Of a DNA stretch of 60,075 nt, positions 15,306-59,966 are shown piece after piece. The notes under the pieces are model-generated. The model saw only the letters and a program-made list of their open reading frames with translations. It did no database searches and was not told where the DNA came from. The DNA lies in the IMG/VR virus record IMGVR_UViG_3300025133_000112, positions 1 through 60,075 of that record, one strand, 5' to 3'. Positions within the stretch are counted from its first letter, which is position 1, and every line of letters starts with the position of its first letter. The translations under genes were made by a program, and so were the position numbers. This DNA comes from a virus (Duplodnaviria > Caudoviricetes).

Positions 15306-17183
15306 TTAAGCTTTCTTTATTACTTCATCAAAGCTAACACCCTGTTTAACATTTACAAAATCAAGAATAATAAATTCAGCAGTCATAGTAGGCTTAACAT
15401 ATATAACTCCTCTAAATTCATTTCTTGAAATTACTTCAGGTGTATTTACTGTATCACTAACATCGACATAAAATTCAGTAATACCTTCTCTACCTTGAAC
15501 ATCTCGTAAATAAGGATCAACTAAACCTTTAAATTGACGTCTAGTGTATGGAGTATTTTTTTCACCCATAAAATATTTAGCTGCTAGAGCAATAGCCTTT
15601 TCAATTACAAGAAATAACCATCTGACGTCTAGTCTATTAAATGAACTTGGGGCTGCTAATAGAGTTTTTTGACCAAGAACAACATGACCATCACCAGGAC
15701 TTGTTATAATTGGATTAACATTAGCTTGATATAATTGATCTCTATAAGTTAATTTAGGATTAACTGCAAGCTTACTAGAATTCTTAACTAATCCTCTATT
15801 ATAAAATGCTGGAGCAAACCAAGGATCTCTTGTAAAGTGAGATTGAGCAGTAATACCAGCAACATCACCAGTCATAGGAACCCAACGATATTTATCTGCA
15901 TATGAATCATACTGATATTTCCAGTTACCATATAATGAAGCCCAGCTTGAACTTTTATTTAGAGTAGTAGTTGCATATGTTATCATATTAGATACTGCTG
16001 TAGCAACAGTTGAAACACCAACTACATCTGCTTTAGGCACATTTAATACGGCTATACAATCTTTTCTATCTTCAGTTAGATTATCTACAATATAAGCACC
16101 AGTAACAGCATCATTATTTGCACCATCTATAATCATTGATACATCAATCTCTTCTTTATTTTCGAAAAGATCATAACCAGTAGTTATATCACCAACAGCA
16201 GGATATCCATTTACTCCACCAGCAAGTACTGTTCCTATTTGAGAAGCAGGAGTATCAGTATTTGATGCTTTATCAAAAAGTAAAATATAATTTGAAGAAG
16301 TATTGATAAAATCTTCACAGTAATAATTTATATTATCAAGATTTTTTGCACCAGCAGTAAGAGAAACTGTCCATTTTTCTAGAATTGTATCAGAATCTGC
16401 ACCATCAATAACAGCAATTGCTACTTCACCAGCAAGAGGAGCATAATCAAATTCATCAACAAATGCAACTCCAGATATAATATCTTCTGTAGCAAAATCA
16501 TCTGCATTAGCAATAGCTACTTTTATATCAGATCCTCTTTCACCAGGATATTTAGCAAATATCTGCCATTTAGAATTATCAGCAGCAAATGTTGGTGTAT
16601 AATTTTCAACATCTTCATCATTACCAATATAATCACTAGCTGCAACTGGTGCACCATCAGCATCTACAATACCAGCCATTGTTGCTTCAGAGCTTGAAAA
16701 AGGATTAGCATTATCAACATCATTTGTATCAACAAATGTTCCTGTTGTGACTGATACTGTGACGTCATTTGTATCAATTGCAATTACTATACCTTCACCA
16801 TCATTACTATTAACACTATCACCTGTAATATCATCTCCAACTGAAAATGGAGCAGCATCATCAAGAGTTATAACAATATAATTTGCACTATCAATTTCTA
16901 AACCACCATTCTTTGCTGTAGCATCATCAACAGCTCTTACAACATATAAAGTACTAGCATATTGTAAAAAGTTCCATGCTGAATACCAATGTTCATATGT
17001 ATCATCATCTGGTTGATAAAATGTTGAAAGCAATTCGCTATCTTGTGTTATTAATGTTCTTTGAAAACAAGGACCCCATCTATATGCACCTACTACTCCT
17101 GTACTTGTAGTAGAAACCGCAGGTACAGATACAGAAAGGTCTTTTTCCTTTGTAACAACTTGTGGACTTAAATAAAAACCCAT
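15306..17183 (-). CDS. gp18: Tail sheath protein
   Basis: LSPQV..KEKDLS, WGP, NFLQY, YVVRA, GNWKYQYD.Y.DKYRWVP..GDVAG, PWFAPA, FNRLDVRWLF. Confidence 0.97.
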   Translation of the reverse strand: MGFYLSPQVVTKEKDLSVSVPAVSTTSTGVVGAYRWGPCFQRTLITQDSELLSTFYQPDDDTYEHWYSAWNFLQYASTLYVVRAVDDATAKNGGLEIDSANYIVITLDDAAPFSVGDDITGDSVNSNDGEGIVIAIDTNDVTVSVTTGTFVDTNDVDNANPFSSSEATMAGIVDADGAPVAASDYIGNDEDVENYTPTFAADNSKWQIFAKYPGERGSDIKVAIANADDFATEDIISGVAFVDEFDYAPLAGEVAIAVIDGADSDTILEKWTVSLTAGAKNLDNINYYCEDFINTSSNYILLFDKASNTDTPASQIGTVLAGGVNGYPAVGDITTGYDLFENKEEIDVSMIIDGANNDAVTGAYIVDNLTEDRKDCIAVLNVPKADVVGVSTVATAVSNMITYATTTLNKSSSWASLYGNWKYQYDSYADKYRWVPMTGDVAGITAQSHFTRDPWFAPAFYNRGLVKNSSKLAVNPKLTYRDQLYQANVNPIITSPGDGHVVLGQKTLLAAPSSFNRLDVRWLFLVIEKAIALAAKYFMGEKNTPYTRRQFKGLVDPYLRDVQGREGITEFYVDVSDTVNTPEVISRNEFRGVIYVKPTMTAEFIILDFVNVKQGVSFDEVIKKA

Positions 17184-17350
17184 ATGTTTATCTCCTTTAT
17201 GTTAAAATTTATTTTTTTATTCTTTTATTTTAATTATTTACTTTATTTATTGACAATTATTATAAAAATAAATAAAAATGGGTAGAAAGCGTTTCATAGC
17301 CACCTACCCATTATTAACTTAATCTCTAAATATTAAATATGTCTTAATTA

Positions 17351-17836
17351 TTAATCAGTATAATCTCCGGTAACAATTTCACCAACAGTCAATGCACCTG
17401 TCAATGGCTTTGTAACTGCAACAAATCCAGCACCTTGAGCAGCATCTGTAAGCTTTAGAACAGCAATACCAGAAGCGGCTGTTTGAATCATAAGATGAAG
17501 ATTAGCTGTGAGAGCTGTGAGAACTTCACCAGTAGAGGCTGTGATTGAATCAGGAGCAAGAGTACTTGCAAGACCTGCACCAGTTGAATCATCAGAAACT
17601 AGAAATTCAAGATTCCTGACACCTGTAAGGGTATTTCCATCAACATCCTGACATGTGATTGTGATTGTGATTGCATTTGTTGTACTAGCTGCAATTACAA
17701 TTGAAAACTGTGCTGGACCTTCTGTCATTGCCCTTACTGACTCAGTTACATTTACTAGTGCAGTAGAATTATCTATCTTGTTTGCACCAGATATATGAAG
17801 CTCCTGACATTTTATTACATCAAATAAATTTTCCAT
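17351..17836 (-). CDS. Probable virion structural protein (Thr/Ala-rich beta protein)
   Basis: Located in the late operon; RBS AAGGAG; beta-rich composition; hairpin downstream at ~17278-17312. Confidence 0.65.
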   Translation of the reverse strand: MENLFDVIKCQELHISGANKIDNSTALVNVTESVRAMTEGPAQFSIVIAASTTNAITITITCQDVDGNTLTGVRNLEFLVSDDSTGAGLASTLAPDSITASTGEVLTALTANLHLMIQTAASGIAVLKLTDAAQGAGFVAVTKPLTGALTVGEIVTGDYTD

Positions 17837-17862
17837 TTTTTTCTCCTTAAATTGTTTATTAT

Positions 17863-18135
17863 TTAAACTACATCTATTAAAGTTATTAAATCTTCAATAG
17901 TTTCTTCCTTTTCTACTTCTACTTCTACTTCTTCAACTTCTAATTTGTCTTCCTTTAAATCTTCTTCTAATTCTACTTCCATTTCATCTTCAACCTTTTC
18001 AAGAATAGATGAAAATTTCATTGCAATTTCATCATCATATTCAGAAATACCAGCTGGAACTTCTAAAAGTTCTCTTCCACCTGCATCCAATGTTAAATTT
18101 ATTCTTTTTCCTATTAAATTAAGATATTTTCCCAT
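17863..18135 (-). CDS. Small acidic protein
   Basis: Glu-rich ORF with RBS AGGA. Confidence 0.6.
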   Translation of the reverse strand: MGKYLNLIGKRINLTLDAGGRELLEVPAGISEYDDEIAMKFSSILEKVEDEMEVELEEDLKEDKLEVEEVEVEVEKEETIEDLITLIDVV

Positions 18136-18150
18136 ATTATACTATCCTTA

Positions 18151-18753
18151 TTATATATTACCAAAAACATCTGATTCTGAAAGATCTAAAATATCCGCTA
18201 TATTTGTTAATTGATCTTCTTCATCTGAATTTGTTATTGGTTCTTGATTAATAACATCTATCTCATCGATATTTACGTTTATGTCTTCATATGAATATTC
18301 AAATAATTTACATGTTAATTTATAAGAGTATTCTTTATGATTAAATTGATAAAAACCTTCTTTATCTTCTACATGAATAACTTCAAAAATTCTATCACTA
18401 ATAGGATGATATATTAAATCATCTTCTTTGGGTGGTTGACCAACTAAACCTTTAAAATTTTCGATTTCTACTGATAAAGTAATTTGATTATCAGGTGTAA
18501 AACCAAATTTACCAAATATATCACCTAATCCATCAAAATTTGAATAATTTTCAATATAAAATGTTACTGGTTTATTTTCTGTAAAACTTCCTAATGCATC
18601 TTCACCGAATATTTGATCTTCCTTAACATATTCTCTAGGTAAAAAATACATATCAATTCCTCTAATTTCTATAAGCTCATGTGTTGCATTAGCATATAAT
18701 TTAGCTTCATTGTTATCTGGAAAATATGTATTTTTAAAGTAAGGATTACTCAT
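18151..18753 (-). CDS. gp14: Neck/head-closure protein
   Basis: NPYF, ELIEIRG.DMYFLPRE, IFGED, KFG, P.EDDLIYHP, FEVIHVE, L.CKLFEYS. Confidence 0.93.
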   Translation of the reverse strand: MSNPYFKNTYFPDNNEAKLYANATHELIEIRGIDMYFLPREYVKEDQIFGEDALGSFTENKPVTFYIENYSNFDGLGDIFGKFGFTPDNQITLSVEIENFKGLVGQPPKEDDLIYHPISDRIFEVIHVEDKEGFYQFNHKEYSYKLTCKLFEYSYEDINVNIDEIDVINQEPITNSDEEDQLTNIADILDLSESDVFGNI

Positions 18754-19089: not shown

Positions 19090-19102
19090 TGTTATTCCTA
19101 AA

Positions 19103-19129
19103 GGTGAGATACTAATTTAGTATCTCACC
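19103..19129 (-). terminator. Hairpin/terminator
   Basis: GGTGAGATACTA/TAGTATCTCACC followed by TTT on the minus strand. Confidence 0.6.
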
Positions 19130-19136
19130 AATAAAA

Positions 19137-19669: not shown

Positions 19670-22600
19670 TTATATAACCTTAAGTTCGAAAAAAGGTTTT
19701 ATTGCTTCTGTTTTAAAGAAAGGTTTTAAAGTCTCAACTTTAAATCTTAATTTATTATGAATAGCTAATAGATCAACATTATCAATACTTGATGCAAATC
19801 TCATACTATCTGGAACTACATCTCCGCCAAAATCAAGTGTGATATTATCAATATTAGAATCATTAATAAGATCATTAATATCTAATATATGTTTCTGAGT
19901 TAATATAGTATTATCAATAGTACTTGATATATCTAAATCTTCAACTGATAATAAAGCAGCTGAACTTAATTCAGTATTATCAATATTAGAATCTACATCT
20001 AAATCATTTGAAACTAATGTATGCTTCTGAGTTACTGAAACATTATCAATATTAGAAGCATTAGTAAGATCTTGAGGAGCTAATGTATGTTTCTGGGTTA
20101 AATCGTTATTGTCTATATTAGAAGCAATATCTAAATCATTTACAGAAAGAGATATTGATGTTGTAATAATAACATTATCAATATTAGAATCTACATTTAA
20201 ATCATTTGCATCTAAGGTAAAATGCTCAACTAAATCTGTATTATCAATATTAGAATCTATATCTAAATCTTGAGCAACTAATGTATGCTTCTGAGTTATT
20301 GATACATTATCTATGTTAGATAAAATATCTAAATCATTTATATCTAATATTGTTGCAGCACTAAGTTCAATATTATCAATATTAGAATCTACATCTAAAT
20401 CATTTGAAACTAATGTATGCTTCTGAGTTAAATCAATATTGTCTATATTAGAAGCAATATCTAAACTATTAGAAACTAATGTATGCTTCTGAGTTACTGA
20501 AACATTATCAATATTGCTTGATATATCAAGATCATTTACATCTAAAATAGTTGCAGCAGTAAGTTCAACATTATCAATATTGGAAGCAATGTCTAAATCA
20601 TTTGAAACTAGTGTATGCTTCTGAGTTAAATCTGTATTATCAATATTGGAAGCAATGTCTAAACTATCAGAAACTAGTGTAAAATGTTGAACTAAATCAG
20701 TATTATCGATATTAGAAGCAATGTCTAAATCATTTACATCTAAAATAGTTGCAGCAGTAAGTTCAACATTATCAATATTGGAAGCAATGTCTAAATCATT
20801 TGAAACTAGTGTAAAATGCTCAACTAAATCAGTATTATCGATATTACTTGATATATCTAAATCATTTGAAACTAATGTATGTTTCTGAGTTACTGAAACA
20901 TTATCAATATTAGAATCTACATCTAAATCTTCAACAATTAATAAAGTTGCAGAACTAAGTTCAACATTATCAATATTAGAAGCAATATCTAAACTATTAG
21001 AAACTAATGTATGCTTCTGAGTTACTGAAACATTATCAATATTGCTTGATATATCTAAATCATTTGAAACTAGTGTATGCTTCTGAGTTAAATCTGTATT
21101 ATCAATATTAGAAGCATTAGTAAGATCATTTACAGATAATGTAAAATGCTCAACCAAATCAATATTATCAATATTGGAATCTACATCTAAATCATTTGAA
21201 ACTAATGTATGCTTCTGAGTTAAATCAATATTGTCTATATTTGAATTTACATCTAAATCATTTACAGATAATGTAAAATGCTCAACCAAATCAATATTAT
21301 CAATATTGGAATCTACATCTAAATCATTTGAAACTAATGTATGTTTCTGGGTTAAATCTGTATTATCAATATTGGAAGCAATGTCTAAATCTTGAACAAC
21401 TAATGTAACTGATGAACTAAGTTCAATATTATCAATATTAGAAGCACCAGTAAGATCTTGAGCAACTAATGTATGTTTCTGGGTTAAATTAGTATTATCA
21501 ATATTGCTTGATATATCTAAATCATTTGAAACTAATGTATGCTTCTGGGTTAAATCTGTATTATCAATATTAGAAGCAATATCTAAATCATTTGAAACTA
21601 ATGTATGCTTTTGAATTAAATTAGTATTGTCTATATTTGAAGCAATGTCTAAATCTTCAATAACTAGTGTATGCTTCTGAGTTAAATCAATATTATCAAT
21701 ATTTGAATTTACATCTAAATCATTTGAAACTAGTGTATTTTTCTGAGTTAAATCAATATTGTCTATATTTGAATTTACATCTAAATCTTGAACAACTAAT
21801 GTAACTGATGAACTTACTTCAACATTATCAATGTTGGATGCAATGTCTAAACTATTAGAAACTAGAGTATGTTTCTGGGTTAATAATAATTCATCCCATG
21901 TAATCTCTTTTATACTAGCATTAGAAATAGTACAGGATTCTGAATCACCTAAATGTATTTTATTTGAAACTGTTGCTGTAGCATCAGCAATAAAATATTG
22001 ATTATATGTACCAGATGATGTTATTGCATTTATAAATTGGGAATTTGCACCAGCAGTACCAGCAACTTCCCAATCAAGTGACCCAGTTACAGCTTCAAAT
22101 GTAACACTAGCAAGGTATACTTTAGCTGTTGTTATACTAACAGAATAATTATATATTACTCCTGTTGGTACACCTGAACTTGATAAAACTTGATAATCAC
22201 TACCATTTTTTGATGCTGTAACAGTACAATCTGTTGGAGCAAAAACAGTCCAATTATCTGCTATATCTCCAGTAACTGTACCTGTTCCACCAGATGTTCC
22301 AGAAGTACCAGATAAATCATTATTTGTTTGTAATTCTGTACCAAGATTAGGATCTCCTAAATGACTTGCTACATCTAAACTATCAGAAACTAATGTATGT
22401 TTCTGAGTTAATGTAGTATTATCAATATTAGAAGCACCAGTAAGATCTTGAACAACTAATAACGTACTTGTTACATCTTCAAAATCCCAATATCCACATT
22501 GGTGAGTAACTCTGATTGTTTCACCAGCTCCAGTTATAGCACGATTACCAATATTATCATATGGATTAGTACCAGTACCTTTTGCATCATCAATTTCCCA

Positions 22601-22969
22601 ATCTAATGATGTATCTGGATTTGTTGTGAAAATATCAAGATAATCCTGATATGATGATCCTGGGGTTCTTGTAGCTCCATTATATCTAGTCCCATTAACA
22701 TAAATTAAAGCTCTAGATTTACCACCAGCTCCAACATCTCTTGATCTATGACAAAGAGTAAAACTATTTATGCTTGTTGCACTAGTAAGAGATGGGAAAG
22801 GTGTTCCAAAATCATTATTTGCATTACCACCATCGTCATTCTGAATATACGTGGTATCATCATCAGGGGCACCATGAATATCATCTATTTCTGTATAGTG
22901 GAATGTACCAGTAGTTACATTCCACTGTATAGAATCATCAGAATTCGGATATATATATTCAATAGTCAT
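19670..22969 (-). CDS. Long repetitive fibre-like protein (22-aa repeats)
   Basis: About 30 copies of LTQKHTLVSNDLDIASNIDNxx after N-terminal beta domains. Confidence 0.85.
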   Translation of the reverse strand: MTIEYIYPNSDDSIQWNVTTGTFHYTEIDDIHGAPDDDTTYIQNDDGGNANNDFGTPFPSLTSATSINSFTLCHRSRDVGAGGKSRALIYVNGTRYNGATRTPGSSYQDYLDIFTTNPDTSLDWEIDDAKGTGTNPYDNIGNRAITGAGETIRVTHQCGYWDFEDVTSTLLVVQDLTGASNIDNTTLTQKHTLVSDSLDVASHLGDPNLGTELQTNNDLSGTSGTSGGTGTVTGDIADNWTVFAPTDCTVTASKNGSDYQVLSSSGVPTGVIYNYSVSITTAKVYLASVTFEAVTGSLDWEVAGTAGANSQFINAITSSGTYNQYFIADATATVSNKIHLGDSESCTISNASIKEITWDELLLTQKHTLVSNSLDIASNIDNVEVSSSVTLVVQDLDVNSNIDNIDLTQKNTLVSNDLDVNSNIDNIDLTQKHTLVIEDLDIASNIDNTNLIQKHTLVSNDLDIASNIDNTDLTQKHTLVSNDLDISSNIDNTNLTQKHTLVAQDLTGASNIDNIELSSSVTLVVQDLDIASNIDNTDLTQKHTLVSNDLDVDSNIDNIDLVEHFTLSVNDLDVNSNIDNIDLTQKHTLVSNDLDVDSNIDNIDLVEHFTLSVNDLTNASNIDNTDLTQKHTLVSNDLDISSNIDNVSVTQKHTLVSNSLDIASNIDNVELSSATLLIVEDLDVDSNIDNVSVTQKHTLVSNDLDISSNIDNTDLVEHFTLVSNDLDIASNIDNVELTAATILDVNDLDIASNIDNTDLVQHFTLVSDSLDIASNIDNTDLTQKHTLVSNDLDIASNIDNVELTAATILDVNDLDISSNIDNVSVTQKHTLVSNSLDIASNIDNIDLTQKHTLVSNDLDVDSNIDNIELSAATILDINDLDILSNIDNVSITQKHTLVAQDLDIDSNIDNTDLVEHFTLDANDLNVDSNIDNVIITTSISLSVNDLDIASNIDNNDLTQKHTLAPQDLTNASNIDNVSVTQKHTLVSNDLDVDSNIDNTELSSAALLSVEDLDISSTIDNTILTQKHILDINDLINDSNIDNITLDFGGDVVPDSMRFASSIDNVDLLAIHNKLRFKVETLKPFFKTEAIKPFFELKVI
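19770..21890 (-). repeat. 66-bp degenerate coding tandem repeat
   Basis: Recurring CTAATGTATGCTTCTGAGTTA...TTATCAATATTAGAA...TCTAAATCATT units. Confidence 0.9.
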
Positions 22970-31544: not shown

Positions 31545-33221
31545 TTATACAAGATTTAATGTGATATCATTAAATTTTAAATATGTTTCTTTTTCTAATG
31601 TTAAATTTGTTGTATCTGTAAGAGTAAATCCTATATCATAAGTATCACCTTCAGATAGTCCACCAAATGTTGTATCTAAAACAATAAAACCTGTTGTATA
31701 ATTAATACTTCCAACTGTTCCAGAATTCCATTCTATATTTCCAGCACCATCATCACTTATAGCAAAACCATTTATTGTTCCTGATATACTACTAGTATTA
31801 ACTGCATTATTTAATCTAATTACATTATAATCATCTGCTGAATGCCTAACAGTTACATTTGTTGTGTAAGTAATATAAGTATAAATAACTGTTTGTAGAT
31901 CATCTACAAACCCAATTAAATCAGATAAATAAAATGATTTTTTATATCCTTCTGATAAATCTAAATAAGCATTTGTTAGTGCTTCTATATCTTCAGAAAT
32001 TCCAACTAATGATTGATAACTAACATTTACTGTAGGACTAACATTAAAAAACATTGGATGTAGAAATTTAAAAAATAAATTTATATATTTATATATTGAA
32101 AGAAAATCTTCAATATCTGACCATTCTCCACTAGTTATATAATCTAAATCTGTTTTAAGCATAGAGAAATAAACATATCCTAAATCTCTTGTTGATCCAG
32201 TTTCTATAATATGATCATCATCTCCAGTATCTATATATTCTTTTTCACCACCCCAAGCGATTGCACTATCAAGAGTATCATAATCAGACCATCTTTTTAT
32301 TAGATTATTATAATCTCCTTCTGTAACTGCTCTTCCTTGAGTAGTATAAAATAATGGAGCTCTTGATTGAATACCTTCATTTACTTCTTCATCTACACCA
32401 TTAGCTAATGAATCAGATGTTGAAATATCTAAATATTCAATATTTGTTGCATCAGGATCAGTATTTGTGATTGTTCCAGTAGTTCCATTATATGTAATAC
32501 CATTTGTATAAATATATTCTATTCTTATTCTATCTCCATCAGGAGGTATTGTGAATAATTGACCGTCATCAAATTTAATAATAAAATTTTCAAAATATTC
32601 AATATAATAAACTTCTTCATCAAATTCAAAGTCATCACTATTTACAGACTTCCATGGAGTAGTACTTTCTATCCATCCACCTACACCATCAGACGCATCT
32701 ACATATACATCAAAATAATCATTATCTACATTTGTTGTATTACTTAATGTGAATCTTTGAAATGCCGTACCATCTGATGTAAATGTTTCTGTTGTAGGTA
32801 TTCCTTCATATAAATCAACAACATAAACACTACCATCATTAATAGTAATATCTTCAACATTTGTTAATAATAATGATCCCATATTCCATGTAGAATATTT
32901 AGGTATGATTATTGTATATGTGTCATTTCTTTGTAAAGATACAGAAATATAAGGAGCAGATTTTCTTGCTGGAAGATAATTTAGCATATGAGAAAGTTTC
33001 TTAATATTAGAATCAATCTCTGCATTTTTAAGGGTTAAATCATTCACTGTCTGATTAAGATAAAATGCCGGTGTTTGTGTAGCAAATGCAAGTACATCTA
33101 ATAGGCTAGAAGCCGCTGAGCCTTCAAAATTATAATCAGTGAATTCTGTTGAAGACTCAAAAAATTCTTGTAAATTAACTTTAATCTCTTCTAAGTCTAA
33201 ATCGTAATATTCATTAGCCAT
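31545..33221 (-). CDS. gp6: Baseplate wedge subunit
   Basis: EFTDYNFEGS..S.LLDVLA, LNY.P, AP..YTTQGRAVT..DY, AWGGE. Confidence 0.93.
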   Translation of the reverse strand: MANEYYDLDLEEIKVNLQEFFESSTEFTDYNFEGSAASSLLDVLAFATQTPAFYLNQTVNDLTLKNAEIDSNIKKLSHMLNYLPARKSAPYISVSLQRNDTYTIIIPKYSTWNMGSLLLTNVEDITINDGSVYVVDLYEGIPTTETFTSDGTAFQRFTLSNTTNVDNDYFDVYVDASDGVGGWIESTTPWKSVNSDDFEFDEEVYYIEYFENFIIKFDDGQLFTIPPDGDRIRIEYIYTNGITYNGTTGTITNTDPDATNIEYLDISTSDSLANGVDEEVNEGIQSRAPLFYTTQGRAVTEGDYNNLIKRWSDYDTLDSAIAWGGEKEYIDTGDDDHIIETGSTRDLGYVYFSMLKTDLDYITSGEWSDIEDFLSIYKYINLFFKFLHPMFFNVSPTVNVSYQSLVGISEDIEALTNAYLDLSEGYKKSFYLSDLIGFVDDLQTVIYTYITYTTNVTVRHSADDYNVIRLNNAVNTSSISGTINGFAISDDGAGNIEWNSGTVGSINYTTGFIVLDTTFGGLSEGDTYDIGFTLTDTTNLTLEKETYLKFNDITLNLV

Positions 33222-36146: not shown

Positions 36147-36776
36147 TTATGATTGTCTCACTATATCTTTAAGTATTTTTTGTATAAATTCTGGTTTTAT
36201 TATTCTTATTACTCGTTTTTCATCATTATCATCAGTTAATAAATCATAATTTGTTATATATGATGCTTCACTTAATACTTGAGTTAAAGATGAAATTGTT
36301 GTTTTATCAGAAGCATATGTTGAAGCATTATCTACTCCATTTGAAGCAACAAATTCTCCAACAGAAATATTGACTACTACATCATTTCCTGATATACTAA
36401 CTATTGTACCTCTACCTGAATTTCCATTATCACCATCACCGCTTATATATCCATTAACTGAAAAATCATCAACACTAGATAAAGTTAAAGTTGTTGTAGT
36501 ACTTAGATCTTGTGCAAATTTTTGTACCATATCTTCACTTAACGGCATATCAAATAAAACATCTCTAAATCCATTTAAAATTGCTATTAACCACCATATA
36601 GATGCATCATTATATAAATAATCACATATTGATTCTAGAGATTCACCTTCTTGAATTCTATATGTTGATATATAGGATGTATCTATATCAGTAGCAAAAT
36701 AATATTTCCAATTTAAATTTCGCCCTATTGTTCCATCTTCAAATGTGTATAGTGGTAATAAATTAAAATATTTCAT
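36147..36776 (-). CDS. gp53: Baseplate wedge protein with inserted module
   Basis: YF..LP, LysM-like Y.IQEGE..E.I...LY....WW.I..LN, N.EKR.I.IIKP. Confidence 0.85.
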   Translation of the reverse strand: MKYFNLLPLYTFEDGTIGRNLNWKYYFATDIDTSYISTYRIQEGESLESICDYLYNDASIWWLIAILNGFRDVLFDMPLSEDMVQKFAQDLSTTTTLTLSSVDDFSVNGYISGDGDNGNSGRGTIVSISGNDVVVNISVGEFVASNGVDNASTYASDKTTISSLTQVLSEASYITNYDLLTDDNDEKRVIRIIKPEFIQKILKDIVRQS

Positions 36777-37608: not shown

Positions 37609-38961
37609 TTAGGCAGGAAGATTTGCTACTGAGATTGCCTTGTAGTAATTTTCTGCGCCATAAACATTATCAGTAAGAGCATAGCGAGTACTGAAGAATG
37701 TTCTTGGTTGATTATCCTCTTCACCGTAACCCTTACGAACTTGAAGTGGAATATATGGAGAGTAGAAAACACCAGCATCTATCTCTGTCGGACCTTTATA
37801 GCCAAGATAAATTGTATCATCAGTAGCATAGAGGTCAACAAAAACTTTCATACCCATTGCAGTACCAGCATAAACAGTCTGAACAGGATCAACTCCATTT
37901 GTATCAAGCTTACCTGAAGATTCAAATACTGAAAGAACAGCAGGAGAAACAATCATAAATGTTGCTTGACCACGCTTATTAGCAACAGCAACTTGACGTT
38001 TTACTCTTGAAGTCATAGTCATAAGATTTTGATACTTCTCAAGTTCCCAACGACCATCAGCAGATGTATAATCAAAAGCTGTAGTAGAACCGATATTAGC
38101 GATTAGATAATTAATCATTTCACGATTCATTTCCATTATAACTTCATCAGAAGCAACTGTACTTAGAAGAGCTTCAGCATTCATATTATGAATTGCTTGT
38201 AAATCTTCTTCAAGTTCATTAGTCCATTTTGCTTTTAACTTTCTAGTCTTAGCAGTTGCAGTAGCAGTTTCAATCTCAAAACCAACTTCCTTCATGTTAG
38301 TTGAAAGGGCCTCACCAGTAGCAGTAGCATAAGATCCACTATAATTACTGAAAATCACGTTAAATAGTGCTTCATTCTCATATACGGCAGAAATTGTGGT
38401 ATCATCTGCATTATATGGATTAGCATTATCAACACCATTTGCAACAACAAATGTTCCAGAAACAACTTCTACAAGAAGATTATTACCTTCTTTGTGGCGA
38501 ACAACACCAACACCATCATTACCATTATCACTATCACCAGTGATATCACCACCAACTGTATAATTGGTTCCAGATGCAACAGTAAGAATAACTGAAGTTG
38601 CTCTTGTGAGAGAGTTTACAGAATCATTCTGGAATGTTGCTCTAAGTGCAAAAATCAGACCAGATGGTCCGCTTAGAGGCTGAGTACCAAAAATCTGAGG
38701 ACCAATCATTGCAGGCATAACACGTCTTAACATTGGAATTAGAATTGGGCTATAATTACCAATTGCAGAAGCCATAGTTGATTCATCAAGACTTTCATCT
38801 TTAGTACCAGCATATTTTTCAATGTTCTCAAAAAGTTGAGCATTCATTGCATAATCTTTTTCTTCTATCTTAGGACAAGCAGAGACATAATCACTCCATT
38901 TTCCTTTACCTTCCATAAGCGGTATCCACTTATCGATTATTGCTTTTTCTACCTTAATCAT
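37609..38961 (-). CDS. gp23: Major capsid protein
   Basis: PILIPMLRRVMP, G.QPL.GPSGLIFALR, RKLKAKWT.EL..DL.A.H, E.NRE, GYKG....DAG.FY.PYIPL, QPR..F.TRY. Confidence 0.97.
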   Translation of the reverse strand: MIKVEKAIIDKWIPLMEGKGKWSDYVSACPKIEEKDYAMNAQLFENIEKYAGTKDESLDESTMASAIGNYSPILIPMLRRVMPAMIGPQIFGTQPLSGPSGLIFALRATFQNDSVNSLTRATSVILTVASGTNYTVGGDITGDSDNGNDGVGVVRHKEGNNLLVEVVSGTFVVANGVDNANPYNADDTTISAVYENEALFNVIFSNYSGSYATATGEALSTNMKEVGFEIETATATAKTRKLKAKWTNELEEDLQAIHNMNAEALLSTVASDEVIMEMNREMINYLIANIGSTTAFDYTSADGRWELEKYQNLMTMTSRVKRQVAVANKRGQATFMIVSPAVLSVFESSGKLDTNGVDPVQTVYAGTAMGMKVFVDLYATDDTIYLGYKGPTEIDAGVFYSPYIPLQVRKGYGEEDNQPRTFFSTRYALTDNVYGAENYYKAISVANLPA

Positions 38962-44298: not shown

Positions 44299-44574
44299 TT
44301 ATGGATTAGCATCACCATCTGCATTACCATAAGCATATGCATTTCCATTTTTAACTTTAATTTCTTGACCATTATCAAGCTTTAATATATAATCCATACC
44401 AGACTTAGCAACAACCATACCATATCCAAAACTAACATCTTTACCAGGATTATCATTGGCTGCAGATTCAAGATCGTATTTTATAGAATCACCTACATTG
44501 TAATATGATGTATCTTCAGTTAGTATATCTGTGAATATACTATTTAGATTTTCTTTGTTCATTTTATTCTCCAT
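44299..44574 (-). CDS. Hypothetical late protein
   Basis: Directly after the late promoter at 44594. Confidence 0.65.
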   Translation of the reverse strand: MENKMNKENLNSIFTDILTEDTSYYNVGDSIKYDLESAANDNPGKDVSFGYGMVVAKSGMDYILKLDNGQEIKVKNGNAYAYGNADGDANP

Positions 44575-44618: not shown

Positions 44619-45857
44619 TTAGATTTTTTTAGGTTCTATCCAAGAAATTTTATCATATGATTTAGCTGTATATGCTATAATATCTTCATCTATATTATAG
44701 CCTTGAATGTTCTCTGTATCTTGGAGGTCTATTTTGAATGAATGTATATCTTTATTTGTAAATACATGTATATTTTGACTTGCCTTTGAAGAAAATTGCA
44801 AATCGTTATCTGAATATGCATTAGATCCGCATAAACTAGATGATCTAGCATAATAATCAGTTATTAGAGCAGAATGTAAATGTCCATATATAGCAAAATC
44901 AATTTTAATACCTCTATCTGAATATTTACCTCTAATTGATTGCATAGATTTTGCATGGTCGGCTTTCACTTGATGACCATGAAGTAATAATAAATTTTTA
45001 TCATTAATATTTACTACTAATTCTGCTGATGACCCTTCAATAAATTTAATTTTTTTATTATTTCTAAACATTAATTTTAAAATTTGATTAATTGTATAAT
45101 CATAATTATCACTCATCATTATTTCTGATATACCATACTCATCTTTAACTCTACCCTCATTTCCTGATACTGATGCTATACTTACATTAAAATTCTTGTT
45201 GAGATCTAATATAACTTGTTCAAATAAAATGGCACTAAGCGCACATGCTTTAGCTCTATTTGTAGCCATATTAAGTAATTCATCTAATCTTCTATCAGAA
45301 TTTATTAAATCTCCAGTAAATGAAATTAATACATTTTTAACATTATAAGAATTAAAAATAATAGTTGATTCAGCAACCATTTTTTGTAATCTTTTAGCAG
45401 CTATTTTAAAATCAAATTGATTACTGGGTATATTGATTAGTTCATTAAGATGAGTATCAGTTAGATGAAAAACTCCATAATTATCATTATTAATTGAATT
45501 ATGACTTATAACCTTATTTTTAGGTCTTTTTTTGAATATACTGATTAATTCATTTGTTAATTCAGAAACAGCATTATCATACCGATATTGTTCTCGAATC
45601 TTTCTTTCTATTCTTTGTTGATCTTGTAATTTTTGAATCTTTTTTGATGATTTAAGTGATTCAATTAAAACTTTACCATCATCGTCATTATCATCATATT
45701 CTTCTTCATTTTTCCAAAAATGTCTAAGAACTTCTCGAACATAACTACTACTGCACTTTAAAATTTTTGATATATCACTAGATATCATATTTGAATTTTT
45801 TTCTTTTAAGTCTAAAATGTCACGTTGTAGATCTGTTACAAGTTTACTCTTATCCAT
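44619..45857 (-). CDS. Calcineurin-like metallophosphoesterase with N-terminal HTH-like region
   Basis: DTH, GDLI, GNEG, HGH, GHLH motifs. Confidence 0.85.
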   Translation of the reverse strand: MDKSKLVTDLQRDILDLKEKNSNMISSDISKILKCSSSYVREVLRHFWKNEEEYDDNDDDGKVLIESLKSSKKIQKLQDQQRIERKIREQYRYDNAVSELTNELISIFKKRPKNKVISHNSINNDNYGVFHLTDTHLNELINIPSNQFDFKIAAKRLQKMVAESTIIFNSYNVKNVLISFTGDLINSDRRLDELLNMATNRAKACALSAILFEQVILDLNKNFNVSIASVSGNEGRVKDEYGISEIMMSDNYDYTINQILKLMFRNNKKIKFIEGSSAELVVNINDKNLLLLHGHQVKADHAKSMQSIRGKYSDRGIKIDFAIYGHLHSALITDYYARSSSLCGSNAYSDNDLQFSSKASQNIHVFTNKDIHSFKIDLQDTENIQGYNIDEDIIAYTAKSYDKISWIEPKKI

Positions 45858-46770: not shown

Positions 46771-48201
46771 TTAGTCTAAAAATGTATCAAATAATTCATT
46801 TATATCAGATTTAGTTGTATTATCTATTTTCTTTACTGATTGTCTATTTACCATTTTAGCCATCAATGCAGTAGTTTTTGGAGAATTACTAATATACGGC
46901 ACTGGATCATCATCTTTTTTATGATTACATAACATAGCATATTCAAATTTAGTGTTTATAACTAATCTATGATTAATAATACCACCAAATCTATTCTTTA
47001 ATGACTTCCAAAGTATAATATTTTTTGATGAAAGTTCCTCATTTCCATACATTGCAATTATAAGGTCACATGTAGCTGGTAAACCATAAGATTCCGCTGT
47101 ATCTGTCATTGATGGATCACTACTTCCTGCACCTCCTCTATTAAACTGAGTTGCACTTATTCCAGCAAATTCTTTTTCAACCATCAGGCCTCTAAGTTCT
47201 TCGGCTATAGCTTTAATTATAGTATAGGAGTCACCAGATGAATACCGATCACTTCTCATTAAATTTATGTAATCTACTATAACTATTTTTGGCTTAAACC
47301 CTGATTTAAGTTTTAAATCATTAATATGATTTCTGATACTCATTGTTGAAGCACCAGCAGTTGGGAATTCTTGTATAAATAATCTACCATAAGAATCTTT
47401 TTTAGTTTCTAATATTGAATCTCTAAATTCATCAAATTCTAATGAAGGTAAATCATTTATCTCCATATCAAGATAATTAGCATCAAATAATTGTGCTATC
47501 TTTTCTCGTGACATTTCAAGCGTAACATAAAGAACATCATATCCATTTCTAACATATGATGCTCCTAATGATACCATAGACATTGTTTTACCACTATGCG
47601 TGTCTCCCATAAATACTGATAGGGCCTTTGGCTCAATGCCTCCACCACATAATGTATTAAATTCATCAAGATGACAAGGATATTTTCTTTTTTCTGTAGT
47701 CATTGATTCATGACGTTTTTTAATATCTTTTGGATCCCAAAAATCGATACCTAAATCATTTTTGAATGAAACTGATAATGCTTCTCTTACAATAGATTCT
47801 ATTTTTGAATTTGGCTCATTTTTATCTTCATAAATATTAACAGCGCTAAATATAGCATTTTCCATTGCTTTATCTTTGCAATAGTCTTCAGTCTCATCAA
47901 TTAGCCAATCAAAATCATGATCTTCATTATAATTATCTTGAACATCTTGGAGTAAATCTGTTACTTTTTCATATGAATCTTCATTTATATTATCTTTCTT
48001 TTGTAATGCACTTATAATAGCAGTATATGTTGGTTTTCTATTATATTTATTTATAAATGATCTTATTACAGAATATACTAATTTAGTTTCATATGAATCA
48101 AAAAAGTCTTTCTTTAAAAAAGGAAAGACCTTTATGATATAATCATTATCTTCTATAAGTTTTTTGAGTATTATTTTTTCCAATATATGCCCTTTAATCA
48201 A
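46771..48201 (-). CDS. gp41: Replicative DnaB-like helicase
   Basis: Walker A GDTHSGKT, LYVTLEM, QEFPT, VDYINL, IAEELRGL, SATQ.NR, AESYGLPAT.D, KNRFG. Confidence 0.95.
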   Translation of the reverse strand: MIKGHILEKIILKKLIEDNDYIIKVFPFLKKDFFDSYETKLVYSVIRSFINKYNRKPTYTAIISALQKKDNINEDSYEKVTDLLQDVQDNYNEDHDFDWLIDETEDYCKDKAMENAIFSAVNIYEDKNEPNSKIESIVREALSVSFKNDLGIDFWDPKDIKKRHESMTTEKRKYPCHLDEFNTLCGGGIEPKALSVFMGDTHSGKTMSMVSLGASYVRNGYDVLYVTLEMSREKIAQLFDANYLDMEINDLPSLEFDEFRDSILETKKDSYGRLFIQEFPTAGASTMSIRNHINDLKLKSGFKPKIVIVDYINLMRSDRYSSGDSYTIIKAIAEELRGLMVEKEFAGISATQFNRGGAGSSDPSMTDTAESYGLPATCDLIIAMYGNEELSSKNIILWKSLKNRFGGIINHRLVINTKFEYAMLCNHKKDDDPVPYISNSPKTTALMAKMVNRQSVKKIDNTTKSDINELFDTFLD

Positions 48202-49273
48202 ATAATGAATTTAAATCTATTTCTCTTTCGAGTGGAATGAATGTTGAAACACAAACTTTTTTAATATTCTCTAAAACCTTTAAATAAGTTTTAAAATACA
48301 TAGTTTTATAATCTACATATTCTCTAAACTCATCTGGAAATTTATTTACAAATGAAATTACATTTGAATATAAGGGATTTGGTTCTTTAAGATAGACAAA
48401 TTTGATTTTTTCGCCTTCTCTTATTAAATCAAAATTATGTTGGATATTATTTGTTTCAACCCAATTATTATATGCTATTGCTCCTCTAACATGAATAGGA
48501 GTTCCTTTTATATGAAATCCTTTACCGTCACTATATTTTTTAATATTATTTGCTGATCTCGGGAATGCTATCTCTTCGCAGGTATATTTGTAGAATTCTT
48601 GTTTTGTAGTTCTAATATAATCTATAAGTTTATCTTTGTCAAGTAATAGAAGTCTTATAGATTCTTTTAGTTTATTTCTAACTAATTTTGGAGTTGAAGA
48701 TTGAACAATTGGTAATCCTTTAACTTTTAGTTTAGGTTCTGAATATCTAACTCCTTCATCATCCCAAACAGTCATAGCATATTTCTTTTTTGCTGTCCAT
48801 AAACATTTAGAAATTACCTTTTCACGTTTCATTACCATATCATTTTCAGATCCAAGATATTCTGCTAAATCATCATACCCTTTATCTATAATTGGCTGAA
48901 TAATTTTATCTGTAAACTTATCTATTTTATCTAAAAGTTCATTTGTTGTTAAATCAGGAAATTTCTTTTGAATTCCTTTTACTGCAGTTTCAATTGAAAT
49001 ATATGCTGAATCAGTATCACAATATACTACTTCCCATTTCCACTTCTTTTGGAGTGGGTGATTCATTAAATATTCTTCTATCCATCTAATTATTAACTGA
49101 CCTGATAGAGTAATTGCTGAAGCAAGTCTCATATCATAATATCTAAAATATTTATTAGCTAGTGCCCCATATTCACTATTCATTAAAATTTTAAGTGTCA
49201 TCTGCTTATTATTTAATGCAGATATTTCAGACTCTAATCTGTTTTTTTCTTTAAGTAATTCCTCTTTATTCAT
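48194..49273 (-). CDS. gp43: Family B DNA polymerase, C-terminal half only (gp43B)
   Basis: KILMNSEYG (motif B), ITLSGQ, YCDTDS (motif C), KKKYA, SSTP, P.HVRG; no exonuclease domain or motif A. Confidence 0.92.
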   Translation of the reverse strand: MNKEELLKEKNRLESEISALNNKQMTLKILMNSEYGALANKYFRYYDMRLASAITLSGQLIIRWIEEYLMNHPLQKKWKWEVVYCDTDSAYISIETAVKGIQKKFPDLTTNELLDKIDKFTDKIIQPIIDKGYDDLAEYLGSENDMVMKREKVISKCLWTAKKKYAMTVWDDEGVRYSEPKLKVKGLPIVQSSTPKLVRNKLKESIRLLLLDKDKLIDYIRTTKQEFYKYTCEEIAFPRSANNIKKYSDGKGFHIKGTPIHVRGAIAYNNWVETNNIQHNFDLIREGEKIKFVYLKEPNPLYSNVISFVNKFPDEFREYVDYKTMYFKTYLKVLENIKKVCVSTFIPLEREIDLNSLFD

Positions 49274-55091: not shown

Positions 55092-55104
55092 TTTATTTCT
55101 CCTT

Positions 55105-56109: not shown

Positions 56110-56144
56110 AAGTAAATAATTAAAATAAAAAGGATTATTTACTT

Positions 56145-56609: not shown

Positions 56610-56633
56610 TAAATAAAATTGCTGGAGAATGAA

Positions 56634-57033
56634 ATGGACTTTAATGAATTAACAGAAATGGTTAAATCTGATTTTGAGTTAAATGAACAACATTTACAAA
56701 CAAAAATCAGAGAAATACCAAATTTGCATAATAAATATTTTAAGATATTTTTTTAAAGAAAAAACAAAATTAATAACATTAGAAAATAGTCTTAATTTGT
56801 TATTTAGAGAAAAATGGTATTATTATATGAATGATTTCGACTATAAGGTCGAAAAGAAACATTTAACTTGGCATGTAGAATCAGATCCAGATTATAGTAA
56901 ATTATTAGTTCAATTTAATAAACAGAAGCATTTAGTTGATTTTTTCGAACAAACACTTAAGAAGTGTAATACTCTTAGTTTTGATATTAAAAATTTAATA
57001 GATTATAAAAAATTCATGGTAGGCGAAAATTAG
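56634..57033 (+). CDS. uvsY: Recombination mediator, frameshifted at a T7 run (56748-56754)
   Basis: N-part MDFNELTEMVKSDFEL...IPNLHNKYF (56634-56756) and C-part EKWYYY...SFDIKNLIDYKKF..G lie in different frames; position between gp3 and uvsW. Confidence 0.8.
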
Positions 57034-58502
57034 TGGTTAAAGTACATTATCATAATGAGTCATTTGTTTTTTTAGAATGTGATTTAGATCAAGCTGTAGA
57101 TATAAATAATCGATTTGCATTTTTTGCAGATAATTATTTCTATTCACCAAAATATAAATCGGGCATCTGGGATGGGAAAATAAAGCTTTTTAGAATTAAA
57201 ACAGGTCTCTTTCCAATTGGATTATTATCTGATCTTTTCAAATATTTTAAATTACATTCTATAAAATACCAAATTGTTGATAAGAATATAGTTTCTAAAG
57301 CTAGAAAATATTCTAAGAAAAAAATATGTGATTTTAACTCAAAGGTAATGAAAAATGAACTCACACCTAGAGATTATCAATTACAATCAGTTCAATTATC
57401 TCTTTATCATAAAAAAAGAGTAATATTATCTCCAACAGCATCAGGTAAATCATTTATTATATTTTTACTATTTAATATGCTAAAATATTTAAATGATGAT
57501 TTTAATTTTCTATTATTGGTTCCTACAACTTCTTTAGTTGAACAAATGGCATCTGATTTTCAAGAATATGCTGAAAATTTATGTGACTTTGATGAATATA
57601 CACATAAGATTTATTCAGGTAAGGATAAAAATACAACAAAGCCAATCACAATATCAACTTGGCAAAGTATGCAGAATATGCCTACAAAATATTTTGAGAA
57701 ATTTGATGCTGTTGTTTGTGATGAGGTTCATACAGCAAAGGGCGCAGAATTAGCAAATATTATTCAAAATTGTGTAAATGCTGAATATAAAATAGGATTA
57801 TCTGGAACATTACAGGATTCAAGTATAGATAAATTACAATTAAAATCTTTATTTGGTCAAATCAATAGAGTTACTGATTCAAAGACTTTAATGAAAAGAG
57901 GTCTTTTATCTAAACTTAGAATAAAAGGAATAATTTTAAATCATAATAATGCAGATAGAAATCTTTGTAAAAAGATGGTTTGGCAAGATGAAGTTGCATT
58001 TATAAATAGTAAAAAAGATAAAATAAGACTATTATCAAAATTAATCGAAAAAGAAGATAATAGTCTTATTTTATTCAAAACAATAGAATATGGAAAAACT
58101 TTATATGAATGTCTAAAAAAGAAATATCCTAATAAACAATTTTTTTATGTTGATGGCTCAGTATCAACAGATTATAGAGAAAATATTAGAAAAGTTTCAG
58201 AAGTTAATGATAATGTAGTTATTGTTGCATCTTATGGTACATTCAGTACTGGAATTAATATTAAAAATCTACATAAGATTATGTTTGCTGAGTCAATGAA
58301 AAGTTCTATAAAAATAATCCAATCTATTGGTAGAGTATTAAGATTACATAAAAATAAGAAATTTGCTACTCTTTATGATATCTGTGATAATTTATCTTGG
58401 AAAAAACGATATAATTATACTTTAAATCATTTCCTACATCGTATTGAAATATATGAAAAGGAAGGATTTAATTATAGCATAAAAGAAATTGATTTAAAGT
58501 AA
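57033..58502 (+). CDS. uvsW: SF2 RNA-DNA/DNA helicase
   Basis: WDGKIKLF, PRDYQ, SPTASGKS, VPTTSLVEQM..DF, DEVH, ASYGTFSTGINIKNLH, QSIGRVLR. Confidence 0.97.
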   Translation: MVKVHYHNESFVFLECDLDQAVDINNRFAFFADNYFYSPKYKSGIWDGKIKLFRIKTGLFPIGLLSDLFKYFKLHSIKYQIVDKNIVSKARKYSKKKICDFNSKVMKNELTPRDYQLQSVQLSLYHKKRVILSPTASGKSFIIFLLFNMLKYLNDDFNFLLLVPTTSLVEQMASDFQEYAENLCDFDEYTHKIYSGKDKNTTKPITISTWQSMQNMPTKYFEKFDAVVCDEVHTAKGAELANIIQNCVNAEYKIGLSGTLQDSSIDKLQLKSLFGQINRVTDSKTLMKRGLLSKLRIKGIILNHNNADRNLCKKMVWQDEVAFINSKKDKIRLLSKLIEKEDNSLILFKTIEYGKTLYECLKKKYPNKQFFYVDGSVSTDYRENIRKVSEVNDNVVIVASYGTFSTGINIKNLHKIMFAESMKSSIKIIQSIGRVLRLHKNKKFATLYDICDNLSWKKRYNYTLNHFLHRIEIYEKEGFNYSIKEIDLK

Positions 58503-58524
58503 ATAATTATAATAAGATTATAAT

Positions 58525-58890
58525 ATGACAGATGAAGCAATAAAAAAGATATTATTTAATAATATCAATAAGATAGATGATATTTTTAGTTTTATTAAAA
58601 AATTTAATGGAATTATTTTATATAATGACCATAAAATAATATTTAGAGCTAGTAGATATTATCTATTAATCAAAAAGTATAATAATCATTATTACTTAGA
58701 AAAAGGTAAAATTCAAATTAATTCAAAGGAAAAAATAGATGAAACTCATTTAGCTATATCAAAAGAAGTACTAAAAATGGCTAATGATCAATTAAATCAT
58801 ATATTTAGAAAAATTATTAGTAACAATAAAGTTATATTAGATGATATAACTAAATATTATATGATTCAAATAAATAATAAAAAGAGGTAA
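58525..58890 (+). CDS. Hypothetical protein
   Basis: Late-promoter variant AAAGTAAATAATTATAAT just upstream. Confidence 0.5.
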   Translation: MTDEAIKKILFNNINKIDDIFSFIKKFNGIILYNDHKIIFRASRYYLLIKKYNNHYYLEKGKIQINSKEKIDETHLAISKEVLKMANDQLNHIFRKIISNNKVILDDITKYYMIQINNKKR

Positions 58891-58891
58891 T

Positions 58892-59335
58892 ATGAGCAGA
58901 AAGAAGCCTCAATATAGTCAAGGCTTATATAAACCAATAAATCCACATAAATATAATGGTAATGCAAATAATATCATATATAGAAGTGGATTAGAATTAA
59001 AGTATTTTAGATATGTTGATTTAAATTCAAGTATATTAAAATGGGGTTCAGAAACAGTAATTGTACCATATATTTCAATTGATGGTAGACCTCATAGATA
59101 TTTTCTTGATTTATGGCTTAAAACAAAATGCAAAAATGGAGCAATAAAAGAATATATATGTGAAATTAAGCCTAAATGTTTTGTTGAACAACCAAAACCT
59201 CAAAAAAGAAAAACAAAGAAATGGATGGGAAAATATAGAACTTGGTTAGTAAATCAAGCTAAATGGGATGCAGCAACAAAATTTGCTATACAAAAAGGTT
59301 GGGAGTTTAAAATCTTGACTGATCATGATATATAA
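58892..59335 (+). CDS. gp4: Head completion nuclease (TnsA-like)
   Basis: G.YKP.NP.KY.G....IIYRS..E, W.SE...VPY, HRYF.D, EIKP, VNQAKW.AA. Confidence 0.93.
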   Translation: MSRKKPQYSQGLYKPINPHKYNGNANNIIYRSGLELKYFRYVDLNSSILKWGSETVIVPYISIDGRPHRYFLDLWLKTKCKNGAIKEYICEIKPKCFVEQPKPQKRKTKKWMGKYRTWLVNQAKWDAATKFAIQKGWEFKILTDHDI

Positions 59336-59344
59336 AGGTATAAA

Positions 59345-59560
59345 ATGAAATCTTTTAAAGAGTATTTAATAGAATTTTTTAATGAAGGTAATCAAATTCC
59401 TCTTTTGAGAAGAAAAGGAATTAATGGATCAAAAGTATTTTGCCCTAAATGTGGTAAAACATTTGTGTATTATAAACAAAAAACTCAATGTAGGCATTGT
59501 AAATCAAATATTGTTTCTACTATGCAAACTAACGATAAATTAGATAATGAATTAAATTAG
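59345..59560 (+). CDS. Zinc-ribbon protein with capsid-targeting-like leader
   Basis: MKSFKEYLIE; CPKCG...CRHC. Confidence 0.6.
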   Translation: MKSFKEYLIEFFNEGNQIPLLRRKGINGSKVFCPKCGKTFVYYKQKTQCRHCKSNIVSTMQTNDKLDNELN

Positions 59561-59573
59561 GAGATAATATAAG

Positions 59574-59966
59574 ATGACAACAACACCAATAGCACAAATT
59601 TTACTAAGTGATGGTACTTTAGTAGATGCAATAGATATTGATACAGCAGGTTCACAGATTACAATAACCTATCTTGAATTGATCCTTACTGTTACAGCAA
59701 GCACAAATTTTTCAGTAGGTACATCTATAACAGGTGATAGCGATAATGGAAATGATGGTGTAGGTGAGGTAATGGCTAAAGATGGTAATGATTTGACAGT
59801 AAGGCTCATTTCAGGAACATTTGTTTCTGGTAATGGGGTTGATAATGTTAGTCCTTATAGTGCAGATGATACCACAATAACGGCTGTAGCTCAAAATGTT
59901 AAGGTTTATAGGACTAGTTTTAATATAAATGAAATCATAGGGACATATTACAATACTGGCGAATAA
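59574..59966 (+). CDS. Small protein built around the module shared with gp23, gp18 and gp53
   Basis: FSVGTSITGDSDNGNDGVG...SGTFV..NGVDN..PY.ADDTTI. Confidence 0.8.
   Translation: MTTTPIAQILLSDGTLVDAIDIDTAGSQITITYLELILTVTASTNFSVGTSITGDSDNGNDGVGEVMAKDGNDLTVRLISGTFVSGNGVDNVSPYSADDTTITAVAQNVKVYRTSFNINEIIGTYYNTGE

Follow-up and report, generated by a model that had tools for sequence, protein, structure and literature searches.

The window considered here is a stretch of 60,075 bp with a GC content of 28%, which makes up the whole of IMG/VR record IMGVR_UViG_3300025133_000112 and represents part of the genome of a T4-like myovirus. Family searches identify head and tail genes for a sheath, a portal, a prohead protease, a scaffold, a gp23-like capsid protein and neck proteins, baseplate genes of the gp48-, gp53-, gp5- and gp6-like types and, in addition, genes for replication and for a late sigma factor resembling gp55. 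The element of interest is a protein module of ~68-70 amino acids that occurs four times in this DNA: in the tail sheath protein, in the gp53-like baseplate wedge protein, in the gp23-like major capsid protein (MCP) and in a small stand-alone protein, orf130 (Table 1). CheckV estimates an 89-kb relative contig to be 48% complete, so on a genome of ~185 kb the window is perhaps one third of the phage genome, and further copies of the module may lie beyond it.

The relationship between the four copies is clear. A hidden Markov model (HMM) built from them and compared with 956 six-frame pieces of the window, each of at least 25 amino acids, returned the four copies with E-values of 1.1e-37 to 1.1e-33, and the next piece scored 0.02, a gap that places the similarity far beyond chance. 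Pairwise amino-acid identities are 39-47%, with the exception of the MCP and orf130 copies, which are 67% identical. The sheath, gp53-like and MCP hosts of the module belong to differing Pfam and PHROG families, and the gp53-like protein aligns at its N and C ends to solved gp53 chains. An earlier note, made from the letters of this DNA alone, had proposed that a single homologous module recurs in virion proteins with no other relationship to one another, and this is borne out: the copies lie within 3 nt of where it placed them, three of them on the minus strand, the quoted peptides agree, and the MCP copy is bordered by FALR and EALF as was described. A fifth candidate, the open reading frame (ORF) at 44299-44574, gave an E-value of 0.02 with the four-copy HMM and only 0.52 with a broader HMM of 90 domains, and was rejected; the number of copies in the window is exactly four with the broader profile as well.

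Table 1. Genes that carry the module, or have a site for it, and the associated features of the window
Feature	Coordinates	Strand	Evidence and remarks
gp18-like tail sheath gene, 625 aa	15306..17183	-	PF04984, PF17482, PF22671, phrog_23; T4 gp18 E 4e-86
module copy in sheath, aa 103-172	16668..16877	-	four-copy HMM E 7.8e-34; slot of T4 gp18 domain I
gp6-like baseplate wedge gene, 558 aa	31545..33221	-	phrog_219; T4 gp6 E 2.8e-9; module site empty at aa 267/268 (~32418-32423)
gp53-like baseplate wedge gene, 209 aa	36147..36776	-	PF11246 (aa 22-84 only), phrog_232
module copy in gp53, aa 95-164	36285..36494	-	four-copy HMM E 1.1e-33
gp23-like major capsid protein (MCP) gene, 450 aa	37609..38961	-	PF07068 E 8.7e-84, phrog_138
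module copy in MCP, aa 124-193	38383..38592	-	four-copy HMM E 1.2e-35; E-loop insertion-domain slot
recombinant cassette in MCP gene, codons ~101-230 (module and both linkers)	38272..38661	-	nucleotide identity versus L010 and L008
orf130, stand-alone 130-aa protein built around the module	59574..59966	+	no Pfam, PHROG or NCBIfam family
module copy in orf130, aa 36-105	59679..59888	+	four-copy HMM E 1.1e-37

The module lies outside the families of Pfam, NCBIfam and PHROGs. Isolated copies searched against Pfam at E-values up to 10 gave no match except SH3 at 0.09, no Pfam match was found over the module region in ten other carrier proteins, NCBIfam gave no match over the module, and PHROGs contains no family for orf130. 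The precomputed Pfam columns that accompany the matches of our profile searches list families of the host proteins and none for the module, and a 32-sequence module profile (A3) run against the sequences of the PDB produced only a chance match, to a TDP-glucose dehydratase. The earlier note had allowed for an already characterized family, and none is apparent in Pfam, NCBIfam or PHROGs; similarly, no account of this domain, or of one common to capsid, sheath and baseplate, was found in the openly available literature. The ESM Atlas returned unnamed viral clusters and a single cluster with Phage-Gp8 on 22% of its members, which were set aside.

An AlphaFold2 model of orf130, calculated from an alignment with 14 relatives, has a mean predicted local distance difference test (pLDDT) score of 83.7, rising above 90 in the module, which is all-beta. 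In the corresponding model of the MCP the module forms six strands (residues 122-127, 138-141, 150-157, 160-167, 175-177 and 187-193) at a pLDDT of 80-85 and is flanked by linkers at 108-119 and 211-225 with values below 50, such that the MCP copy is modeled as an independent domain held by two tethers. The module is thus predicted to be an autonomously folding, six-stranded beta-barrel that represents an unannotated family. Foldseek found no match to the orf130 model in the PDB at E-values of 0.001 or below, and subunits of V1/F1 enzymes appeared with a probability of ~0.9 but at E-values above 0.03. An exhaustive structural aligner returned small barrels at Z 5-6.6. First among them was the eIF2-gamma domain of 1s0u (Z 6.6, root-mean-square deviation 2.4, 64 residues aligned), and others came from a chain of 1031 residues in the Klebsiella phage baseplate entry 9f4a (Z 6.3, 80 aligned) and from domains of the SelB/EF-Tu type; lower in the list, at Z 4-5, domains belonging to a number of phage capsid, tube and spike chains appeared. 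T4 gp23 and gp24 chains are not among the 50 matches listed, an absence that does not exclude likeness. According to the aligner, Z values below 8 may reflect only a common arrangement, and for this reason only the fold class, a six-stranded barrel, is taken from these comparisons.

The capsid provides the most constant setting for the module. The MCP of the window is at most ~31% identical to the capsid proteins of isolate phages, and its closest solved structure, both by sequence and by fold, is T4 gp23. Relatives of the MCP were found at 19 IMG/VR loci, three of which hold only the C-terminus, leaving 16 that are testable, and in every one of the 16 (44-89% identical) the module is found at the same place. 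The common core of these capsid copies is GVVRHKEGNNLLVEVVSGTF, which weakens with distance. Such complete retention indicates that the capsid copy is old and vertically inherited, and on the sequence evidence the MCP appears to be both the oldest and the most widespread home of the module.

The position of the capsid copy can be defined by comparison with T4. MCP residues 64-116 align to residues 85-137 of T4 gp23 and residues 223-434 to T4 residues 247-484, with the module between the two blocks. In terms of the gp23 fold, this is an insertion into the E-loop, which follows the conserved FALRA strand and precedes the P-domain. The T4 insertion (I) domain comprises ~60 residues. It is likewise inserted in the E loop, and PMC9958956 and PMC3185693 describe it as resting on a neighboring subunit of the same capsomer and reinforcing the capsomer; the latter source also describes it as chitin-binding-like. 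The gp23 homolog of phage phiM9 is most variable at residues 125-180, which correspond to an E-loop insertion domain (PMC4621102). The earlier note had taken the position of the T4 insertion domain to be empty, and this has to be corrected, as the T4 alignment and the phiM9 insertion domain both indicate that the module fills that slot. No sequence homology to the I domain was found when MCP residues 117-222 were compared with T4 gp23 using phmmer, which returned no alignment. When five isolate MCPs were scanned with the module HMM, gp23 of Campylobacter phage IBB_35 gave a weak match at the same site (residues 124-180, independent E-value 4e-4), and those of cyanophage S-BM3, Melnitz, Cr30 and XG4 gave none in the slot. 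The suggestion in the earlier note that Campylobacter phage capsids carry a looser insert at this site is thus weakly borne out; a stricter search of the whole IBB_35 record with A3 found no module at E-values up to 0.01.

The segment that contains the capsid copy also has a history of its own. Nucleotide identities were summed by segment inside and outside codons ~101-230 of the MCP gene. Outside this cassette the gene is identical to that of L008 (L and P numbers are our own labels) at 888 of 960 positions, falling to 299 of 390 inside, whereas the comparison with L010 gives the reverse picture, with 725 of 960 positions identical outside and 379 of 390 inside. The same mosaic is observed in the protein and in the synonymous differences, and the latter point to exchange rather than merely fast protein evolution. 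On these sequence comparisons, the E-loop segment of the capsid gene has been swapped between lineages by recombination. In gp53, the comparison of window and L008 identifies the module as the most diverged part of the protein, at 59% identity against 79-84% in the flanks.

Outside the capsid the module is sporadic. In the sheath, all five aligned relatives (L027, L029, L030, L031 and L032; 42-70% identical) lack any insertion at the module site. The module is found at the same site as in the window in P0023, P0026 and L043, a diverged copy is present there in L035, and in P0017 the module lies ~90 residues beyond it. A whole-protein alignment sets the module of the window sheath opposite T4 gp18 residues ~106-170. 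Domain I of T4 gp18 is described in PMC3004832 as residues 98-188, a six-stranded barrel with a helix. The domain projects outward without taking part in contacts of the sheath, and its binding partners are the baseplate and the long fibers in their retracted state. Homology of the module to this domain in T-even phages was not detected, either by hhalign of A3 against residues 90-195 of RB3 gp18 (probability 1.5% over 11 columns) or by hmmsearch (6.1 bits).

A comparable pattern is seen in the baseplate. The gp53 module is present in the L008 ortholog, the L048/L010 lineage has 10 residues in its place, and in the gp53 of P0014 the module is preceded by an extra segment. The gp6-like protein lacks the module both in the window and in its L008 ortholog (90% identical, 559 aa). 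In the orthologs of L010, L001 and L007 (639-641 aa) both flanks align and the module sits exactly between window residues 267 and 268; the gp6 of L060 also carries it there, and that of P0024 has it elsewhere, near residue 527. A further gp6 ortholog, of 751 aa (L022, 16768-19020), has a different, non-module insertion near its N-terminal third. A search over the full length of ten related records found the capsid copy alone in four of them, two copies in each of another two and no copy in the remaining four, of which one lacks the relevant half of the capsid gene. Of the records examined, the window is the richest, its four copies lying within 60 kb. The mobility between host proteins that the earlier note had suspected is evident in this presence and absence in sheath, gp53 and gp6 among close relatives, and in the use of other sites by other phages.

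The stand-alone gene, orf130, is preceded by a good ribosome-binding site. It lies downstream of a gp4-like head-completion gene (phrog_218) in the window, and likewise in L006. Orthologs and paralogs of 125-138 aa are found in other records, including a metagenome contig (L062, 1641-2431) with two tandem paralogs of 132 and 138 aa that are 70% and 64% identical to the window protein. The product of orf130 is probably a small virion protein. Matches to the T4-type late promoter TATAAATA number 31 in comparison to 27 expected, with none directly upstream of orf130, and are uninformative. A small ORF between the gp4-like gene and orf130 (59345-59560, plus strand) contains two Cys-x2-Cys pairs and is zinc-ribbon-like.

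The copies within the window do not form a family of their own. Their DNA is 57-72% identical, the longest exact run being 18 nt, and in a tree of 78 copies every window copy pairs with its ortholog from elsewhere. Approximately unbiased (AU) tests were applied to a 52-row tree from which lipoprotein repeats and partial domain hits were left out. A single clade of the four window copies is rejected (p-AU 0.00027, difference in log-likelihood 101), a single clade of all 17 capsid copies is not (p 0.29), and a single clade of six sheath copies is borderline (p 0.037). Taken together, the DNA identities, the tree and the AU tests argue that the copies are neither recent paralogs nor homogenized within the genome, and the prospect, raised in the earlier note, of copies clustering by genome is not sustained. 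On these trees, the secondary copies arose more than once. The idea that the capsid copy was the donor fits the free tree, without being proven by it.

The family extends well beyond the window. A phmmer search of orf130 against 1.84 billion protein representatives returned 35 matches at E-values of 0.001 or below, 14 of them at or below 1e-10, and a profile search of longer proteins adds further carriers. Among virion proteins these encompass gp23-family capsid proteins, sheaths (P0017, P0026, L043 and P0023, the last with two copies), gp53 proteins (P0014 and P0031), and gp6 of P0024 together with proteins of 638-641 aa. Other carriers are stand-alone proteins, 125-138 aa in length, a family of ~200-aa proteins with the module at the N-terminus, and uncharacterized proteins that span 576-905 aa and contain the module once, twice or three times. 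Finally, proteins of 0.9-1.6 thousand residues have three to five modules in tandem together with a signal peptide and lipobox and a He_PIG Ig-like (immunoglobulin-like) domain. One of these lipoproteins comes from a metagenome-assembled genome of the Bacteriovoracaceae and others reside on contigs of 0.57 and 1.7 Mb, sizes that indicate a cellular origin. One multi-module lipoprotein, P0018 (1238 aa, on a 575-kb contig), bears the name preprotein translocase subunit YajC, which is probably spurious and triggered by the barrel repeats. A tblastn search of orf130 against 50,697 phage records gave only two chance matches, to archaeal viruses at an E-value of 0.02. Species-representative genomes scanned with the narrow A1 patterns yielded no relatives among 54 pattern matches, although diverged cellular copies may be present there.

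These observations can be brought together in one reading, to which we would assign a probability of roughly 0.6: the module would be a promiscuous barrel domain of the virion exterior that acts as a capsomer clamp in the capsid and as a dispensable surface accessory elsewhere. Its oldest home would be the E-loop of the MCP, the slot that T4 fills with an unrelated insertion domain, and by analogy with T4 the capsid copy would most likely rest on the neighboring subunit and clamp the capsomer. The same module would have been copied in frame into solvent-exposed slots in the sheath, in gp53, in the gp6 of sister lineages and in several large uncharacterized proteins, and it is also found as small stand-alone genes such as orf130. 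The secondary copies, which are gained and lost between close relatives and so look like dispensable accessories rather than core structure, might make weak contacts either with other parts of the virion, such as folded-back fibers, or with cell-surface polymers. Lineages have also traded the exposed capsid segment through homologous recombination, which would be in keeping with a surface subject to diversifying pressure.

Several points weigh against this reading. The exposure of the module is deduced from T4 positions and from monomer models, and for the insertion sites in gp53 and gp6 it is presumed. The function of the module is wholly inferred, and the role of the capsid copy could differ from that of the T4 I domain. 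Sheath relatives that are without the module have nothing in its place, which suggests that the slot tolerates anything and says little on function. The structural matches, at Z values in the generic range, support the fold class only. Lastly, with a p value of 0.29 for a single capsid clade, spread from the capsid to the other proteins is not proven.

The first alternative is a shared docking site, in which the module would provide one address on head, sheath and baseplate for a single partner, such as folded-back fibers, whiskers or a decoration protein. It draws on the position of the sheath copy, which corresponds to that of T4 gp18 domain I, a domain that binds the retracted long tail fibers and the baseplate (PMC3004832), and on a conserved face, with the motif VDN..PY....TTI, that the copies have in common. 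Such a partner would, however, need all of its sites, yet close relatives differ in having MCP and gp53 copies, MCP and gp6 copies or, in several cases, an MCP copy only. Insertion sites vary in other phages, no candidate partner was identified, and tandem arrays of the module are found in bacterial lipoproteins too. A single docking partner is accordingly judged unlikely.

The second alternative is adhesion. All copies, including that of the capsid, would bind glycans or the cell surface and render the whole particle sticky, as in the Hoc/Ig-like adherence model. The promiscuous and sporadic distribution resembles that of phage Ig-like domains, the tandem arrays adjoin He_PIG Ig-like domains in predicted surface lipoproteins, and the conserved motif combines D/N with aromatic residues. 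Against this, no homology to carbohydrate-binding families was found in Pfam or by the A3 profile against PDB sequences, and retention of the capsid copy throughout its clade points to a structural role there. General adhesion through every copy is, on balance, a doubtful proposition.

A broader proposal, which we also hold to be rather improbable, is that of a virion-wide address domain, each copy, the capsid one included, presenting the conserved face (VDN..PY..TTI) to a common ligand. If this were true, the ligand might be the folded-back fibers, a host-surface polymer, or soluble proteins of the orf130 type acting as adaptors. Swaps of the capsid cassette, together with gain and loss of copies, would then re-program the stickiness of the particle or evade host sensors of capsid surfaces, and the module would define a previously undescribed class of promiscuous domains on phage surfaces, one held in common with the lipoproteins of predatory bacteria.

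A Ca2+-binding site or modification acceptor in the D/N/G-rich loop is very improbable. The loop, GDSDNGNDG, is D/N-rich and near-identical in the MCP, orf130 and L010 gp6 copies, but it is the least conserved part of the family, varying in length and composition: distant MCP copies read QGGTSTGDGNG, TTDGAGAG or GDTSGATG at this position, L008 has a three-residue insert, and G27 is the sole invariant residue in an alignment of 32 sequences. A family-wide D/N-rich Ca2+ loop, which the earlier note had offered as one option, is not supported in view of this variation. Recent intragenomic duplication or concerted evolution, under which the copies would be young paralogs homogenized within the genome, could account for the 67% identity of the MCP and orf130 copies, above the values of the other pairs, but is contradicted by the AU rejection, by the 57-72% DNA identity and by the pairing of each copy with its ortholog, and is hardly credible.

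Returning to the promiscuous barrel with a capsomer clamp in the capsid, its significance would lie in the following. Promiscuous accessory domains are known on phage virions and, to our knowledge, nearly all of those described are Ig-like; here an unannotated barrel family would play this part across capsid, sheath and baseplate. It is unusual that one of the copies serves an entire T4-like clade as its obligatory capsid insertion domain, that close relatives provide natural knock-outs by presence and absence, and that the capsid copy is exchanged as a recombination cassette. The system should be tractable for asking what surface domains do and how new domains enter the rigid lattices of capsid and sheath. 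The tolerated insertion sites could be useful for phage display, and the domain family merits a Pfam entry.

The window has several other features. A tRNA gene cluster at 131-2733 has nine members (Glu, Met, Thr, Gly, Cys, Trp, Asn, Ser and Leu), of which the one called as Cys (aca), at 99 nt, is odd-looking. The DNA polymerase is seemingly split into an ORF of 359 aa (48194-49273, minus strand) and an "exonuclease" ORF of 412 aa (44619-45857, minus strand), 2.3 kb apart and with a DnaB-like helicase gene between them; similarity of the 359-aa ORF to phage polymerases is confined to their C-terminal half (phrog_262 positions 494-837; phrog_1918 over its full length). In the tail region, an ORF of 1099 aa (19670-22969, minus strand) has no PHROG family and aligns weakly, over residues 796-1005, to PP1 regulatory subunit 7 (E-value 0.002), in a match of leucine-rich-repeat-like character.

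In comparison with known systems, the best structural matches to the orf130 model are the barrels of the translation-GTPase domain II type and the N-termini of F1/V1-ATPases, with several more at Z 4.6-6. However, sequence identities to these are 6-20%, the Z values are in the common range and there is no functional link. Domain I of T4 gp18 has the same insertion slot as the sheath copy, in domain II, and is, according to PMC3004832, a protruding six-stranded barrel. In contrast to the module, the T4 domain has an extra helix, homology between the two is undetected, and the nearest sheath relatives of the window are empty at this position.

The I domain of T4 gp23 and gp24 mirrors the capsid copy in its slot within the gp23 fold, in the two long linkers seen in the MCP model and in that the E-loop domain is the most variable part of gp23 homologs (PMC4621102). 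The two differ in that no sequence similarity is detected, and the T4 domain is described as chitin-binding-like in PMC3185693. The module is found in capsid, sheath and baseplate. For the T4 I domain we know of no report from other virion proteins.

The remaining comparison is with the Ig-like accessory domains of phage structural proteins (Big_2, I-set and FN3), reportedly surveyed by Fraser et al. in 2006, and with T4 Hoc. Phage Ig-like domains are thought to act through weak surface contacts. Like them, the module is a small, autonomous, sequence-variable beta domain found on capsid, tail and baseplate, sporadic among close relatives and arranged in tandem in cellular surface proteins. Unlike them, it is predicted to be a six-stranded barrel rather than an Ig sandwich and has no Pfam Big, I-set or FN3 signature, its capsid copy is universally retained, and its copies are internal insertions and not terminal additions. 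Although the module is not a member of the Ig-like set by fold or by family, it is in this set that its closest analogue in behavior is found.

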